DNA of 64,000 nucleotides, taken from the sequence record PZ445530.1; one strand, written 5' to 3'. Both the position numbers and the translations under genes were made by a program. Numbering within the stretch: position 1 is the first letter of the stretch; each line of letters opens with the position of its first letter. The notes under the pieces are model-generated. The model did no database searches, had not been told where the DNA came from, and saw only the letters and a list, made by a program, of their open reading frames with translations. This stretch comes from a phage. Below, piece by piece: positions 3,456-63,801 of this stretch.

Positions 3456-3513
3456 TGTTTAACAAAGAGTGGGAGGGGTAGTACAACCGCCTCCCCTTTA
3501 AGGAGAACTGTAT

Positions 3514-5937
3514 ATGAGCATGTGGTCGTTCGATTTTGAGTCATCCGGTTTGCTGGAAGACCCAGATCTTTATTATCACTGCGGCCTGTTTAAAGAGCTG
3601 AATAAGAACCGTTTTATGCTGTTCCTTCCTCTGAATGACCGCACACACTACTCCGAGGAGGATATAGAGAAGGCCAAGAACTTTATTCTGGCAAAGAAAA
3701 CTCTTTATAAGGATTTTGAAGTTCGCATAGCAGATTTTTCGGAGTTGGAAGGTTGGCTTACAGGAAATTCCGACTGGTCACCAACAGCTTTGAACTGCCA
3801 TAACTGCTACAGTTATGACTTTATGCTGATGGAGAGATTATCCGGTATTCATTTTGATATGTTCCGTGATCCTAAATGTATGGGGACTATCAACGACCAC
3901 CAGGTTAACCTGTTTGATACGTTGGCGATGAGCCGAATCTTGTGGCCTGATCGCCCTTTACCAAAAGGTTGTCCGGACTCCGTATTCAACCCGGTTACTA
4001 AGAAAATGCAGCCTGTTGGTCCTCACGGCCTTATGGCATGGGGCTACGCCCTTGGTAACCAGAAAGTTCAAATTGATGATTGGCGCGATCTTCCGTTGTG
4101 GAAGTATGTGGATCGTGTATTCGAGGACGTTATCATCCAGGAGCTACTCTGGAAAGAGCTGGTAGCGGAATCAAAAGGTGTATTCTACGGCAAATCTGAC
4201 ATGCAGAACTTTATGTACGATCCTGCCAAAGAGAAGCCGAAAGGGTTCAAGAAGATCACCTGGAAGAACGCATTGCGCCGGGGTATGCTGCAACACTTCC
4301 TGATGGAGCTGCAGGCCCGTCAGGGTGTGTATTTTGACATAGATGGAGCTATTGCTTTACGTGACCGTTGCGATGCGTGGATGAAAGAAATCGCTGATCG
4401 TGTTGAACCACAACTGCCTTTAAAAGAGCTGTCAATGTCTCAGCGGCCCAAGTTCCCTGAAAAGCCGTTTAACCAAGATGGGACAATCTCTAATAATGGT
4501 TGGAAATGGTTAAAAGATAAGCTTGGCTATCCTGTGGACATGAGTGCTTTAGAGTTCAAAGCCCCACCTAAGCGAGCATTTACCTCTACAGGAGATGTCA
4601 GTAAGATGGGGATAAAATGGTGTGAAGAGATGGGCTGCAAAGACCACGATAAGATGGCTGATTTCTTGAGAGGCTATATTAAGGGCACCTCCACACCACA
4701 ACCTTTACCTAAAGAGCTGATGGATCAGGCAATAAGCGATCTGCAGCAGAAGCGAATGCCTGACTGCAAGATACCTATGAAAATCAGCAATCAGGACGAT
4801 ATTAAGCGATACCTGATCAGTGCTGGTTGGCTTCCGACAATGTGGAGAACTAAGGATGTAACTAAAGACAGCAAGAAGAAAGCTTTACCTGATGCAGATG
4901 TTGATGCACGAGTATATGCATATATGGACGAGCTTTTGGAGTCAGAGTATTGTGACCTAATTATCAACTTCTGGAACAAAACTGATGCTAAGTTCCAGAC
5001 AACCGTGCACAAGTTCCGAAGCTTTCCTAACTCCGAAAGGATTAAAAAGGAAGTATTCGGGAAAATACGTAGAAAAGCTAGGGCACTTATTACTTCTCCG
5101 CAACTGAAAGATACGTTTGGACACCTGTGTCCGAATCTTGAAAAATTGAACGGAGAGATGGCTAAAGATATCGTCTTATGGTTATCATTGCGAAACCGCA
5201 GATCGGTACTTGATCCAATCAAGGAGGATAAGGTTGACACTGGTCTTCTTAATCACCCACGTTTGAAGATTGACCATAAGCTTCCTGCTAAAAGCTCTGG
5301 ATTAACAAACACTTCCAGACAGAAACACAGTATTTGTGCAAACATGCCTAAACCCTCTCCTAAAGTGGTTATGGGTAAAGAGATGCGTAGCTTGTGGGGT
5401 GTTCCTCCAGGATACTTTGAGATCGGTATCGACGGGTCCAACTTAGAGCAGCTTATCGGGGCTTGGGGTGCCTTTGAGTTCGACAACGGCCTGTATTACG
5501 ATGTTGTAAGTAACGGAGACGCACACCAAAACAATGCTGAGGCATATACAAAAGTAGCAGGCAGAGAGGTGTCCCGTAACGACGGTAAACCTATCACGTA
5601 TGGGGTTATGTACGGGGCACAAAAAGATAAAGTTGCAGATATGCTGGACATCTCTCCAGAGTTGGGACAAAGGGTAATCGATGCGCTTTGGGATGCCAAC
5701 CCTGGTCTTAAGGGCCGTAAAGAGGATCTGGAGAAATTCTGGGAAGCAACGGGTAAGAAGTTTATCTACTCTTTTGATGGTCATGCCATCTGGACCCGAT
5801 CTAAACACTCTTTACTTAATGCATACCAACAGAATGGTGGTGCATCGCTGTGTGACTTGGTTGGGATACTTATGCACCACCAAATGGTGAAGCGTGGGTG
5901 GTACGATGAAGGTGTTCGTCGTATTATCTATTACCAT
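3514..5937 (+). CDS. DNA polymerase family A, exon 1 (3'-5' exo domain plus polymerase motifs through motif B)
   Basis: exo motif FDFESSGL; motif B KPITYGVMYGAQ; frame ends ...IIYYH immediately before stop, where motif C HDE is expected. Confidence 0.8.
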
Positions 5938-6779
5938 AAATAACATTGTGGCTTCGTGCAGTGATGCACGTCGAAAACCTCTTTAATTGACGGGAAGGCT
6001 AAGTTGACTTTTACACCTAAACATGGTAAAAGCTCAATATGCTAATCCGCAGCGAAGACTAAAGGGGTGTAGTTAAAATGGCTAGATCAGTTGAGTATCA
6101 CGGATATACCGTGTTTGATGATGGAACAATACCTTTATCGAAACGTGATCATACAACAATGTTTTGTTTTGATAATGGTCGAGGTTACCTTTGCGTAACC
6201 ATGTTCATCGAGGGGAAGCAGTGCACAAAAGGTGTCCACCACTTGGTTGCTGAATGCTTTGTATCAAACCCTGATCCTGAAAGGCTCACATGGGTGAACC
6301 ATAAGGACGGAAACAAATACAACAATGCATACTGGAACCTTGAATGGACCACCCCTGGTGGAAATATCAAACACGCTTATGATAATGACCTCAGAGTAAG
6401 GCCAGTCGGTGAGTATAATGCCAACGCTGTACTGACCGAGGATGAGGTAACGGAGATTTGCGAACTGTTACAAAGTGGTTTACGACAATGCGAGATTAGG
6501 GATCTTGGGTATCCTTATGAGACGGTCAGAGCCATAAAGCAAAGAAGACAGTGGAAACATATCTCTAAAAACTACACCTGGTAGTAACGTTCAGAGACTA
6601 TCGAAAGCATAGCGCCAACATAAATTGGTGCGAAGAAGCGAGTAGAGTAGACCAGCAAGTGCGGTCGAAATGGGAGGTGCCTTGGTAACAAGGTAGTGAG
6701 ATAGTCCGATCCATACAGGAAACTGTATGGCTGTGCACGTAATGGTGCGGGGTAGCTTAACGACCTACCTGAACTATTG
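5938..6779 (+). mobile_element. group I self-splicing intron interrupting the DNA polymerase gene
   Basis: conserved core elements P (AATTGACGGGAAGG ~5985), Q (AATCCGCAGC ~6044), R (GTTCAGAGACTA ~6589), S (GAGATAGTCC ~6698); exon 1 ends in T, intron ends in G; exon frames differ. Confidence 0.7.
6078..6584 (+). CDS. intron-encoded HNH homing endonuclease
   Basis: NHKDGNKYNNAYWNLEW HNH motif; ORF nested between intron Q and R elements; own SD. Confidence 0.75.
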   Translation: MARSVEYHGYTVFDDGTIPLSKRDHTTMFCFDNGRGYLCVTMFIEGKQCTKGVHHLVAECFVSNPDPERLTWVNHKDGNKYNNAYWNLEWTTPGGNIKHAYDNDLRVRPVGEYNANAVLTEDEVTEICELLQSGLRQCEIRDLGYPYETVRAIKQRRQWKHISKNYTW

Positions 6780-7133
6780 GATGAGTACCAACTTCAAGTC
6801 CCTGACACACCGAAGTATAAGACTGTGTACACCTTCGACACAATTGAAGAATTGGAAGCATTTAAGGCAGAGCAGGAGGCCAAACTTCATGTGTTCGACG
6901 GTCATAAGTACAAAAAGGCACGCAAGGATGAAAACGGAAACGAAGTGGTTGACAGAGACGGAAACACGGTGTACGATCCTATCTTGAACGATGACGGAAA
7001 GCTTGAACTTATCTGGAGTCCTGTGGGCGAAATGGTGGTACATTGCTTCTGGCAAGCTTCTAAAATGATGGGAGTCCCGTTCCAGATCACAGGTGAATAC
7101 TTGTGTGGTCGTAATTGGGGTGATTGTCACTAA
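6780..7133 (+). CDS. DNA polymerase family A, exon 2 (C-terminal part incl. motif C)
   Basis: splicing joins ...YYH to DEYQ... giving HDE; C-terminus ...GRNWGDCH resembles T7 pol ...GPNWAICH. Confidence 0.65.
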   Translation, partial: DEYQLQVPDTPKYKTVYTFDTIEELEAFKAEQEAKLHVFDGHKYKKARKDENGNEVVDRDGNTVYDPILNDDGKLELIWSPVGEMVVHCFWQASKMMGVPFQITGEYLCGRNWGDCH

Positions 7134-16309: not shown

Positions 16310-16361
16310 TACCCTACAAGGTGAACAACACCGCACTAACTAGTAAAGAGGATAAAAAATC

Positions 16362-21650: not shown

Positions 21651-21850
21651 ATGAGCAACAATATCCGCGTTATTAACTTCAAAAAGAAGAAAAAATTGCC
21701 GTGCTGATTGACGGTCAAGAAATCTTCAAGGGCGACTATGAAGATCATCAAACGGCGATTAGTATCACTCGCGTGATTGGTTATCATAATTTCTACCCCC
21801 AAGGCGCTGAGGCAGCAGTTAAACGAATCAAAGAGATTGTAGGCCTGTAA
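21651..21850 (+). CDS. hypothetical 66-aa protein requiring a -1 shift at AAA-AAG (~21681-21687), or sequence indel
   Basis: ATG with GAGGAGAAAG SD stops after 18 codons; -1 frame continues ...EEKIAVLIDGQEIFKGDYEDH... to stop at 21850. Confidence 0.4.
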
Positions 21851-24555: not shown

Positions 24556-24646
24556 TTTAATTTATACCGATACCCGAAAATTAACCAACAAAGCATAAAC
24601 AGGCGGTTGCCGCCGCCTTAAACGTAGCAGAAAGAGGATAGATACA

Positions 24647-24880
24647 ATGAAAAAGATGATCGCAGTAGTTGCCCTGGTTCTGGAAGAAGAAATTAAAGCC
24701 ATGCACCATAGCAACAGATTTATTGGTGACGCGCAGGATAATATGAAAGTATGCCGCCATAAAGTTAATGAAGTGCTTAAAGAGTACGGCTATAAAGATC
24801 TTATGATCAAACGTGAGGAAAAATTCCGCTACCGTAACGACCTGGCAAATCGGATTTTTGAAATATACGAATCATTATAA
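24647..24880 (+). CDS. hypothetical protein
   Basis: 77-aa ORF, SD AAAGAGGA. Confidence 0.55.
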   Translation: MKKMIAVVALVLEEEIKAMHHSNRFIGDAQDNMKVCRHKVNEVLKEYGYKDLMIKREEKFRYRNDLANRIFEIYESL

Positions 24881-30060: not shown

Positions 30061-30348
30061 TCATAGTGCCTCTAAGATTTCATATCCTTCGGGTCGGAAT
30101 ACAAGCCACTCCGTGGCTCCGTTTGGTCGATACGTTTTATACAGAACAACCTGATCTCGGCACATGCACATAGCTACATAGTTTTCATCCACACCTGCAG
30201 CCTGCATTGCAGCTTCTTCTCCGGCAACTGCTTTGCTTACAACCTCCTTAGTAGGCAGGTGTGCGATCAGCTCGTCACCATCATTAATTCCAAAATGGCT
30301 GAGTTCTCCATTGGTATCTTTAATCTTAATCTTAACCAGATCTTTCAT
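30061..30348 (-). CDS. small acidic protein (family member; ends ...YEILEAL)
   Basis: GGAGG SD; start overlaps stop of the alternate frame of the upstream gene. Confidence 0.55.
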   Translation of the reverse strand: MKDLVKIKIKDTNGELSHFGINDGDELIAHLPTKEVVSKAVAGEEAAMQAAGVDENYVAMCMCRDQVVLYKTYRPNGATEWLVFRPEGYEILEAL

Positions 30349-30400
30349 TAGTCTTCCTCCAGGTTCAAAGGCCCTAAGATTTCATATGCCAGATTAGAAG

Positions 30401-30679
30401 TTACCAGAGGGTCTTCTGCATCTTTAGTATTATACCACCCGTGAATAACCAGAGTCCCACACTCTGTTTCATATCTAACTGGAACTGTTCTGCAGTTTCC
30501 TCATCCATCTCTAAGATCTCCATAAGGTACTTGATGTTAGGAAGGTATGCAGCTGTTACAGTTCCCTCTACCAGACCTTCGGGCCAACCTACATCCGGAT
30601 GACAAGTAGGAACCAGATTAGTCAGCTTAATAGTGTACGCTTTTTCTGCACGAGCCTTCAGTAACGGGTCAATCTTCAT
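30401..30679 (-). CDS. small acidic protein (family member); 3' end may continue in another frame to 30351
   Basis: alternate frame is open to a TAA that overlaps the next ATG and encodes a family-like C-terminus ...YEILGPLNLEED. Confidence 0.45.
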   Translation of the reverse strand: MKIDPLLKARAEKAYTIKLTNLVPTCHPDVGWPEGLVEGTVTAAYLPNIKYLMEILEMDEETAEQFQLDMKQSVGLWLFTGGIILKMQKTLW

Positions 30680-31029
30680 TATTCGTCCTCCTCTTCGGTG
30701 CCTGCTTCCAGTAATAAGTTAAGAATATCTTCTGCACAAGGCTCATAGAACTCTTGGCCTTCATTATCAATGATTTTGTAGTCATCTCCACGAATAATCA
30801 GGGGATCACTCTCAAAATTATCGAGACCTTTAACAACGACAACACGATCGATTGCCATCATTGTAAGAACTTTATCGACATCTTCCTCTGCTACACCATA
30901 CTGCAGCAGAATGTCTTTGGTAGGAGGAACAGCATCCACCACAACGCCGTTACCAAAACCTTCCGGAAGTTTAGCTAAAATATCTTCCGGAACCACATTC
31001 ACATCAAAACCGGTAATTTCTACTTTCAT
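30679..31029 (-). CDS. small acidic protein (family member)
   Basis: MKVEI... start, ends ...EAGTEEEDE; shares GFG...EED...VVV pattern with 31030..31290 and 32454..32723. Confidence 0.55.
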   Translation of the reverse strand: MKVEITGFDVNVVPEDILAKLPEGFGNGVVVDAVPPTKDILLQYGVAEEDVDKVLTMMAIDRVVVVKGLDNFESDPLIIRGDDYKIIDNEGQEFYEPCAEDILNLLLEAGTEEEDE

Positions 31030-31290
31030 TTACAGCACCTCTTCGTCAACTACTTCATAAAAATGGCCTGGGATTGCAATAGCGTTCTCACCTTCACCTA
31101 CAAACACAGTTCCGTCAAGAATCAACATCATAAGAATTTCTGTAATATCCTCTTCCGGAACGTTGCCAAAACCTTTAATCAGCTCGTAGGTTGGAATATT
31201 TACCTCTAAGATGTCACCATCTTTAGAACGGAAATCAACACCGTCCTGAATCTCTGCCGTTTCAAGGTTTTTCAATTTAATCTTCATCAA
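31030..31290 (-). CDS. small acidic protein (family member)
   Basis: MMKIKL... start, ends ...YEVVDEEVL. Confidence 0.55.
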   Translation of the reverse strand: MMKIKLKNLETAEIQDGVDFRSKDGDILEVNIPTYELIKGFGNVPEEDITEILMMLILDGTVFVGEGENAIAIPGHFYEVVDEEVL

Positions 31291-31366
31291 TCGGTCTCCT
31301 GTCTTGTTAAGATGAAGGTATTATTTCACACAGGGTTGGCGTTGTCAACACCTGTGTGCAAGAAAA

Positions 31367-32453: not shown

Positions 32454-32723
32454 TTATTCCTCTACAATCTCATACACATCAGGAGTTACAATCAACTCTT
32501 CTCCGTTACCCGGTGCAACAAACACCACCAAGCCTTCAGGTGTGTGCTTTTTAGCCATCTCGATAACATCTTCTCGCAGAGCTGGCTCCATCAGATCAAA
32601 GCCTTCACCCAGGGCATCACGAACCACCTTCATATAGTCCACTGGTTGTGCTTCAACAATCATGCCTTCAACCAGTCCACAGTTTTTGTCTGCCAGCTCA
32701 GTTTTGAATAATTTAATTTTCAT
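32454..32723 (-). CDS. small acidic protein (family member)
   Basis: MKIKLFK... start, ends ...PDVYEIVEE. Confidence 0.55.
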   Translation of the reverse strand: MKIKLFKTELADKNCGLVEGMIVEAQPVDYMKVVRDALGEGFDLMEPALREDVIEMAKKHTPEGLVVFVAPGNGEELIVTPDVYEIVEE

Positions 32724-32775
32724 TTAGAGGTCTCCTCAATTATTTGATATTAATAGCCGTAACCTAACACATTAA

Positions 32776-33030
32776 CTACAACTGCGATTGCAAACATAAT
32801 TTCAAAGCATGCCCATGGTAAAAATCTTTGTCCTTAGACAGTTTCTCATCTATATCTGCATCAACACATTCGTGATCCATAGCATTTTGCCTGAACGCAT
32901 CGGTTATGCCAATGCACGCCTTGCTCTCAAGACTGGTATATCCGATATCTTTTAATTCAGTTTCCCAAGTCCAGTACCCTATAAAAGCTAAAACAGCTAC
33001 CCACAGTAATAACGTTTTAATCTTTGGCAT
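32776..33030 (-). CDS. small secreted/membrane protein
   Basis: N-terminal hydrophobic LLLWVAVLAFIGYW. Confidence 0.45.
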   Translation of the reverse strand: MPKIKTLLLWVAVLAFIGYWTWETELKDIGYTSLESKACIGITDAFRQNAMDHECVDADIDEKLSKDKDFYHGHALKLCLQSQL

Positions 33031-33092
33031 TCTCTCTACCTCTTTCTTAGTTTATTTCACTATGGCACATCCTTTGTGCCATATCTCAACTA

Positions 33093-59752: not shown

Positions 59753-60286
59753 TTAAAGTTCCATAAAGTTTTCTACAGTTTCAATAAATGCTTTATCAGA
59801 GAAAGCGTCAACAGCACCGTTAAACCATACAGGGATCCCGCGATCCTCATATTGATAAAGGTCGCTACGTGAAATGCCACTTCCATCTGCACTCTGCGAA
59901 TCATACTTGTTTACAATCAGCAGTTTTGTGCCTTTACAAGTAGCAGGAAACAATTCCCAGTTAAAATTAATAACTGTGTTAGAACAACCTACCAGGATCA
60001 CCATATCATTGCTTGTGAGAGATGTCAACAGGTCATACATGTCTGTATACTTAGGAGCAACCTCACCGAAGAACACTACATTGGGCTTAACCCAGGTATA
60101 CTTGCCTGTATCTACCTCCGTGTATCCGATATTTTTAATTACATCATTACCTTCAGCATCTTCGTAGGTGATTTCAGGCAAATACCCGTGGACATGTAAA
60201 ATATCTTCATGTTTTACACCAGCACGCTCCAGCAAATCATCTACATTGGTAGTAAGGTTGATCACACGACCAGACCAGCGGGTCAT
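59753..60286 (-). CDS. Sir2-like (sirtuin-fold) protein, apparently lacking the N-terminal NAD-binding GAGIS region and the Zn-binding cysteines
   Basis: NVDDLLERAG, ILHVHG, KPNVVFFGE, MVILVGCSNTV match sirtuin motifs QNID.LH.RAG / LHG / RP.VV.FGE / LV(I/V)GTS. Confidence 0.45.
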   Translation of the reverse strand: MTRWSGRVINLTTNVDDLLERAGVKHEDILHVHGYLPEITYEDAEGNDVIKNIGYTEVDTGKYTWVKPNVVFFGEVAPKYTDMYDLLTSLTSNDMVILVGCSNTVINFNWELFPATCKGTKLLIVNKYDSQSADGSGISRSDLYQYEDRGIPVWFNGAVDAFSDKAFIETVENFMEL

Positions 60287-60791
60287 GGAGTTTGATTCAT
60301 GTCAAAAACACAGATCTCAGTATGATCACAATCTTGACAGTATGAATGCGGGAATCATCGCCGAGTGGAACTCTGTTGTGTCACCTGCAGACACTGTGTT
60401 CCACTTGGGAGATATTGCGTGCACTAATGATAAGAATATCAACAACTTACTTCCAGATATTCTAAATATGTTGAACGGACATATTATTCTTGTTCGTGGC
60501 AACCATGACACAAGGACGACTGTCAGAATTATGAAAGAGTTCGGTCATGAGGTTGTAGATTATTACGAGCTTCGCCACAACAAGAATTTAATCTGTATGA
60601 GCCATTACCAGTTTGCAAAGTGGAACAGAAAGCCTCACGGATCAGTCCAACTGTTCGGTCATGCTCACGGAACCACACAACAGTTGTTTGGCAGGCAGCT
60701 TGATGTCGGTTGGGATGTGTGGGGGAGACTCTTACCATTAGAAGAGGCATACCGTATTGCAATGAGTTTTGATATTGACAGCAGGGAGTAA
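60285..60791 (+). CDS. metallophosphoesterase-like protein, N-terminal metal-binding motif I absent or degenerate
   Basis: IAEWNSVVSPADTVFHLGDIA (motif II), LVRGNHD (motif III), GHAHG; start abuts the Sir2-like start codon on the other strand. Confidence 0.45.
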   Translation: MEFDSCQKHRSQYDHNLDSMNAGIIAEWNSVVSPADTVFHLGDIACTNDKNINNLLPDILNMLNGHIILVRGNHDTRTTVRIMKEFGHEVVDYYELRHNKNLICMSHYQFAKWNRKPHGSVQLFGHAHGTTQQLFGRQLDVGWDVWGRLLPLEEAYRIAMSFDIDSRE

Positions 60792-63726: not shown

Positions 63727-63801
63727 GCCCTGTTAGCTTAGTGGATAAAGCAGCGGCCTTCTAAGCCGTTGACACTGGTTCGAGTCCAGTACGGGGTGCC
63801 A
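63727..63801 (+). tRNA. tRNA-Arg (anticodon TCT), CCA encoded
   Basis: cloverleaf folded by hand: 7-bp acceptor, GCTT/AAGC D-stem, anticodon loop CTTCTAA, T-arm ACTGG-TTCGAGT-CCAGT. Confidence 0.75.

Follow-up and report, generated by a model that had tools for sequence, protein, structure and literature searches.

Does the gene that starts at position 30679 on the minus strand of this phage DNA end in the reading frame in which it evolved, or has a frame change separated its start codon from its original C-terminus? And, if the frame has changed, does the change lie in the phage itself or only in its sequence record? We addressed these questions for a window of 64,000 nucleotides, i.e., the whole stretch of DNA analysed (record PZ445530.1), which belongs to the genome of a Vequintavirus (rV5-like) phage of Escherichia coli.

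Two reading frames and a two-base duplication

As read, the disrupted ORF (30401-30679, minus strand) starts with the ATG at 30679-30677, stops with the TAA at 30403-30401 and encodes a 92-aa product that ends in ...MKQSVGLWLFTGGIILKMQKTLW. The gap between this premature TAA and the ATG of the next gene (30348-30346) comprises 52 untranslated nt (30349-30400). The -1 (+2) frame is open from approximately codon 60 and ends in ...AYEILGPLNLEED, and its TAA (30348-30350) has one base in common with the next ATG (30346-30348), giving TAATG. The first-pass annotation of the locus had described this layout, with a 52-nt gap in one frame and a TAA lying over the next ATG in the other, and the layout can be read directly from the sequence. 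Its range of 30351-30679 requires a small correction in that 30351 is the last sense base and the stop codon occupies 30348-30350. Similarly, the tail of the 92-aa product had been called hydrophobic; it is hydrophobic, but over only ∼11 residues (GLWLFTGGIIL), and this stretch is too short for a membrane helix.

Comparison with relatives bears out the idea that the ancestral C-terminus and the stop/start coupling to the next gene lie in the other frame. In the phages ime, naswa and rV5_ev147, the gene forms one ORF of 330 nt, with ...YEILGPLNLEED as its C-terminus and a stop codon that overlaps the next ATG. The stretch 30400-30500, in which a frame change had been suspected, does contain one. 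Relative to these phages, the window has a 2-nt insertion at 30459-30462 on the minus strand, and the alignments show that GT has been duplicated in tandem to GTGT (plus strand, ACAC), directly after codon 73. On the minus strand, the window reads CAGAGTGTGGGAC where the aligned relatives read CAGAGTGGGAC. Either of the two GT units can be taken as the extra one, and an automated indel listing puts the position at 30458/30461. In the alignments, the insertion is visible in comparison to ime, naswa, rV5_ev147 and four metagenome/SRA contigs, and all relatives aligned or listed are without the two bases and have one intact 109-aa ORF. The two extra bases are the sole difference from the ime allele: codons 1-73 match those of ime, and the remainder does so in the other frame. 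Given this near-identity, the insertion is likely recent.

The duplication would shift the frame after codon 73, upon which translation would continue through 19 out-of-frame codons to the stop at 30401-30403. Accordingly composed, the 92-aa ORF consists of 73 ancestral residues (MKIDPLL...DMKQS) and a 19-residue out-of-frame tail, VGLWLFTGGIILKMQKTLW. The ancestral-frame C-terminal part, i.e., codons 74-109 (GTLVIHGWYNTKDAEDPLVTSNLAYEILGPLNLEED) and the TAA at 30348-30350, is still present at 30348-30458 (minus strand), but no longer in the frame set by the start codon.

The duplication sits in the loop of a 6-bp stem-loop at 30450-30466, which is formed by the short inverted repeat CAGAGT/ACTCTG (listed on the plus strand; the feature itself has no strand), and changes this loop from GGG in the relatives to GTGGG in the window. 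We suggest that GT most likely became GTGT by slipped-strand mispairing during replication, and the hairpin may have favoured this slippage. Quasipalindrome correction by the same hairpin is ruled out, because the 6-bp stem, as read from the alignment, is already present in the ancestral sequence and the insertion only enlarges the loop.

As far as can be judged from the databases, the insertion is private to the window, with no other record carrying it in any collection searched. A 1.3-kb query around the site matched 119 phage records at 90-99.5% identity, almost all of them Vequintavirus (rV5-like), and each full-length match among those listed was 2 bases shorter than the query; the closest public matches to the window are ∼97-99.5% identical. 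With a 100-nt query, 108 phage records matched, none at 99% identity or above, and the full-length matches listed (the best 60 of 108) spanned 97-98 nt, none with the insertion. A 40-nt query was covered over at least 80% of its length by 115 phage records; among the matches listed (the best 15 of 289), the best was 95.0% identical over 38 nt, which corresponds to exactly a 2-nt gap. A more divergent record that combines the insertion with several mismatches is improbable but could lie outside these listings. The exact insertion-bearing pattern was not found in IMG/VR viral contigs, metagenome contigs or GTDB genome contigs; two viral contigs matched when the pattern was searched with the insertion removed. 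The E. coli complete-genome set contained no match, and the sole rV5-like record in the plasmid set is without the insertion. At the protein level, the exact 109-aa protein obtained by removing the insertion (henceforth, the repaired protein) is present in 121 public contigs, and its cluster has 177 members; the exact 92-aa product is absent among ∼15 billion protein sequences.

These searches also returned records with unexpected labels. Eighteen records named "Campylobacter phage" (MG0656xx, host C. jejuni) match the query, and those listed are ∼98% identical to rV5-like phages. CP057073.1, a 137.6-kb record filed as an E. coli plasmid, carries the gene at 98% identity and has a length typical of rV5-like genomes. 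Both cases look like labelling or contamination issues.

The frame under purifying selection and its remote paralogs

Several lines of evidence support the alternate frame as the one maintained by selection. The repaired protein matches phrog_12457 over positions 1-109 of 109 (E = 7.4e-74), the as-read ORF matches positions 1-77 of 109 only, and the alternate-frame peptide matches positions 72-109 (E = 6.7e-21). The two frames together, therefore, tile the profile of one family, and, on profile similarity, such a split is far beyond chance. For the segment downstream of the insertion, the relatives provide six distinct haplotypes, and their substitution pattern indicates that the alternate frame is under purifying selection: this segment has six synonymous and no nonsynonymous substitutions in the alternate frame, and the same segment has one synonymous and five nonsynonymous substitutions in the frame read in the window. 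Finally, 26 of the 36 C-terminal residues do not vary across five ortholog clusters that are 79-88% identical to the first sequence.

The members of phrog_12457 in ime (QHR66441.1), naswa (QHR68980.1) and rV5_ev147 (VUF54384.1) are annotated as a 109-aa hypothetical protein. As in these three phages, the gene in the window is placed between a 116-aa and a 95-aa gene. Unlike them, it has two extra bases, a 92-aa product with a foreign tail and no stop/start overlap; a single uninterrupted ORF of ∼109 codons is not present in the window, and 92 codons are left. Thus, the window contains a disrupted allele of the phrog_12457 gene and not an intact member.

The acidic C-terminus encoded by the alternate frame had also been proposed to be family-like, i.e., to resemble those of neighbouring genes. 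This proposal gains support from a comparison with these genes, and the paralogy is remote. The neighbouring small genes belong to separate PHROGs, and their mutual similarity is low: BLASTP within the window gave E-values of 9e-7 for g30679 and g31030, 2e-3 for g30061 and g30679, and 1e-3 for g31030 and g32454, and an E-value of 0.11 for g30061 and the repaired protein. A profile was built from these four neighbours (g30061, g30679, g31030 and g32454), which are small proteins with acidic tails. Against this profile, the repaired protein scores 11.8 bits (a score reached by 0/1000 shuffles) and P0024, an independent ortholog of 46% identity, 9.5 bits (0/1000 shuffles), versus 4.5 bits (10/1000 shuffles) for the as-read protein. 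In the joint alignment, four columns are invariant, M1, G39, E60 and Y98. Y98 is the Tyr residue of the C-terminal Y-E-I-L strand (YEI[LV]) and the one invariant aromatic residue of the family, and it is encoded in the alternate frame only. The same holds for the complete ...PL[IV]...Y-[EK]-[IV]-[ILV] strand with the acidic tail (PLVTSNLAYEILGPLNLEED). An exhaustive HMMER search with the ortholog profile against 1.84 billion representatives returned three proteins only, none of them a paralog, and thus no distant relatives that could hint at a function. Altogether, the profile scores point to a family link between the repaired protein and its neighbours that is real but weak.

Neither the repaired protein nor any of nine neighbours had a significant Pfam match, a sequence search of the PDB with a 40-sequence profile gave nothing, and in the literature on small early genes of Vequintavirus/rV5 we found nothing about the 109-aa gene. 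One of the paralogs, the 89-aa protein encoded at 32454-32723 (minus strand), carries the label "sigma 54 modulation factor" in both ime and naswa. This protein has no Pfam match at E ≤ 1, and the label looks like an unsupported annotation transfer.

To what extent could the 92-aa product still be active? AlphaFold with the five orthologs alone gave an unusable model (pLDDT 51). With 40 sequences including the merged paralogs, the model reached a pLDDT of 85.1 and a pTM of 0.77 and is, by construction, not independent of the paralogs. It has five predicted β-strands (residues 11-19, 41-47, 76-82, 90-93 and 98-104) and two predicted helices (residues 49-56 and 60-73). Its best match in BFVD is the 95-aa paralog from phage ECP32 (E = 4.7e-4, for a model built with paralogs), and the best matches of the five-strand model among solved structures are SH3-like domains, the group of small β-barrels that includes SH3, KOW/L24 and Tudor domains. 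The 92-aa product would lack the conserved C-terminal 36 residues and, with them, three of the five predicted β-strands (strands 3-5) and the invariant Tyr residue. We infer that the truncated product would be unable to form the predicted fold and, based on this fold (pLDDT 85) and on conservation, that it is almost certainly non-functional.

The four-gene run and other parts of the window

The disrupted gene is the third of a run of four genes on the minus strand. The run starts with the 85-aa paralog (31030-31287, phrog_12359), the stop codon of which abuts the next ATG (TAAATG). It continues with the 116-aa paralog (30679-31029, phrog_12155), the TAA of which overlaps the ATG of the disrupted gene (TAATG), and ends with the remote 95-aa paralog (30061-30348, phrog_12794), the ATG of which overlaps the stop codon of the 109-aa gene in the relatives. 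Thus, stop and start codons overlap or abut at 31030/31029, at 30679 and, in the alternate frame only, at 30348. Just upstream of the run, a sigma-70-like promoter match is present at 31320-31348 (minus strand; TTGACA, a 17-nt spacer and TG-AATAAT; 11/12). This is a consensus match only, and promoter-like sites in the region do not exceed those in shuffled sequence.

Ribosomes that translate the 109-aa gene of the relatives would terminate on the next ATG; those in the window would stop 52 nt earlier, and coupling by termination and reinitiation would be lost. The downstream gene would keep its own strong, unstructured ribosome-binding site, a GGAGGA Shine-Dalgarno sequence at 30355-30360 (minus strand) that lies within the ancestral ...LEED codons. 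RNA around GGAGGA is less structured than shuffled controls (z = +1.5), and this value rules out burial of the site in RNA structure upon loss of coupling. Because the surrounding RNA is unstructured, the site should stay accessible without coupling, and any polar effect on the downstream gene would be expected to be modest at most.

This arrangement recurs in the run. Read from the sequence, acidic C-terminal codons double as the Shine-Dalgarno sequence of the next gene at 30352-30362, 30680-30697 and 31033-31047 (minus strand), the codons being GAG GAA GAC (preceded by CTG), GAA GAG GAG GAC GAA, and GAC GAA GAG GTG. This dual use probably explains why acidic tails and coupling occur jointly. 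The acidic tails of these proteins (EED/EEEDE codons, GAGGAG-like) would also serve as ribosome-binding sites of the next coupled gene.

Other parts of the window differ from ime and naswa as well. The DNA polymerase gene is split at 3502-7133 (plus strand), with 3502-5943 corresponding to residues 1-808 of the naswa protein and 6756-7133 to residues 809-925. The two halves are ∼0.8 kb apart. The polymerase gene of ime is split likewise, and its two halves flank an HNH endonuclease gene; the split looks like a homing-endonuclease, intron or intein-type insertion. At ∼59753-60791, ∼2 kb are missing that in ime encode a phosphoesterase, RNA ligase 1, the product of a small gene and residues 1-77 of a Sir2-like protein, and the ORFs that flank the missing segment overlap at ∼60168-60301. 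Two naswa blocks are absent, a block of small genes at ∼24600-24880 (L006 25056-26931, 5 genes) and a block at ∼32750-33051 (L006 35342-38280, ∼10 genes, one of them labelled "sigma 54 modulation factor"). In comparison to both ime and naswa, two extra bases (AA) are inserted at 16354-16357, at the N-terminal end of the naswa_129 ortholog, and a similar N-terminal discontinuity is present at ∼21677-21707 in the naswa_142 ortholog. Both discontinuities may lie upstream of the true start codons, and ime annotates a shorter start for the naswa_129 ortholog. With Rfam, a single feature of the window scores above the gathering threshold, a tRNA at 63727-63798 (plus strand).

Origin of the duplication and comparison with known systems

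Our data support a scenario in which the duplication is real, arose recently and inactivated a dispensable accessory gene, and we consider this the probable origin. Among ∼125 naswa and ime genes with orthologs in the window, a mid-gene frameshift is present in the disrupted gene alone; the remaining partial ortholog matches represent presence/absence differences, the DNA polymerase gene that is also split in ime, and two small N-terminal ambiguities. Because no other mid-gene frameshift is present in these genes, the assembly is not indel-prone. Moreover, other public assemblies contain this gene with lesions of independent origin: a TGT-to-TGA change at Cys26 (L008), a 4-nt deletion (L009), loss of the start codon by an ATG to CTG change in two metagenomes (L010 and L011), another frameshift (P0066), a fusion to the upstream gene (P0008) and a doubly shifted variant (P0006). 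Frameshifted variants of the paralogs are also present (P0056, P0057, P0060 and P0067). These independent lesions in the gene and its paralogs fit a dispensable accessory gene, and some of them could be errors themselves. A different type of variant is P0023, a 98-aa protein (ENA, 657-nt contig; PF24132 listed for it in Pfam), which is a chimera of 44 unrelated N-terminal residues and the C-terminal 54 residues of the same gene and suggests recombination within the gene in some relative.

The evidence that has to be set against a genuine mutation is that the insertion is confined to a single record in a gene that is otherwise the ime allele and is without secondary decay. A lone private indel is also expected of an error, and the loop of a 6-bp hairpin is a context miscalled by some chemistries. 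Accordingly read, the 109-aa gene is intact in the phage, and the consensus has gained a GT in error, e.g., by a hairpin miscall. We regard such a sequencing or assembly artefact, the main rival explanation, as unlikely, if still worth serious consideration: 454, Ion Torrent and Nanopore data typically contain errors in homopolymer length, and a dinucleotide duplication is of another kind, the ∼125 orthologous genes indicate a low indel error rate, and real lesions of the same gene are present in other genomes. Thus, the low-indel assembly, the non-homopolymer change and the independent lesions elsewhere favour a genuine loss-of-function mutation over an error. If the mutation is genuine, the question is whether it was selected. 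The variety of independent lesions in other assemblies (a nonsense change, a 4-nt deletion, loss of the start codon, frameshifts and a fusion), together with the frameshifted variants of the paralogs, could be taken to mean that losing or truncating the protein helps on some hosts, or that the truncated protein is active with its new tail. However, the gene is intact and under purifying selection in most genomes, and it has no known function or interacting host system; we consider a selected lesion highly improbable. In a related form of this idea, which we consider highly improbable as well, this small gene and its paralogs have been knocked out repeatedly and independently in rV5-like phages as a liability on some hosts, and the frameshift is an escape mutation. 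The protein would then, for instance, be sensed as a trigger by a bacterial defence system, and its loss would not be neutral decay.

The window contains a copy of a known and widely sequenced phage ORFan gene that is broken by a private 2-bp duplication, and as such, it is ordinary. The finding matters mostly for annotation, where the 92-aa product is best marked as coming from a disrupted version of the 109-aa gene, so that it does not spread through databases as a new protein. For the biology of the rV5-like phages, a genuine mutation implies that this ORFan family tolerates loss.

A gene coded across two frames invites comparison with systems in which frame changes have a function. Programmed -1 frameshifts are known in dnaX and in the tail assembly chaperone G/GT of lambda-like phages, and a conserved two-frame layout is a hallmark of such frameshifts. 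As in dnaX and G/GT, the protein in the window is coded across the 0 frame and the -1 frame, and the two frames jointly encode a complete family protein. The gene even has one A-AAG site where a -1 shift would reach the other frame, and by programmed -1 ribosomal frameshifting or another type of recoding that joins the frames, the full-length protein would still be made. However, unlike dnaX and G/GT, the gene has no slippery heptamer, the X XXY YYZ pattern being absent between codons 60 and 92, and after a shift at A-AAG, 12 wrong residues would still take the place of the conserved strand 3, LVIHGWYNT. Moreover, every relative checked uses one frame, i.e., its layout is one ORF, and the two-frame layout is not conserved. 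With the heptamer absent and the layout not conserved, programmed frameshifting is not supported, and we give recoding in general almost no weight.

In phase-variable contingency genes, the copy number of a simple sequence repeat switches the frame. The gene in the window resembles them in that a change in dinucleotide copy number switches its frame. It differs from them in that the tract goes from one to two GT units, far under hypermutable length, and in that there is no length variation among the relatives checked, all of which, among the matches listed, have a single GT. Phase variation is, therefore, not supported, a long tract and length variation between strains both being absent. The closest counterparts are frameshift pseudogenes, and error-derived apparent frameshifts, in phage accessory genes. 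With these, the gene shares a private indel of a length other than 3n in a conserved ORF, an ancestral frame that is still recognisable and the absence of a recoding signal, and nothing separates it from this class.
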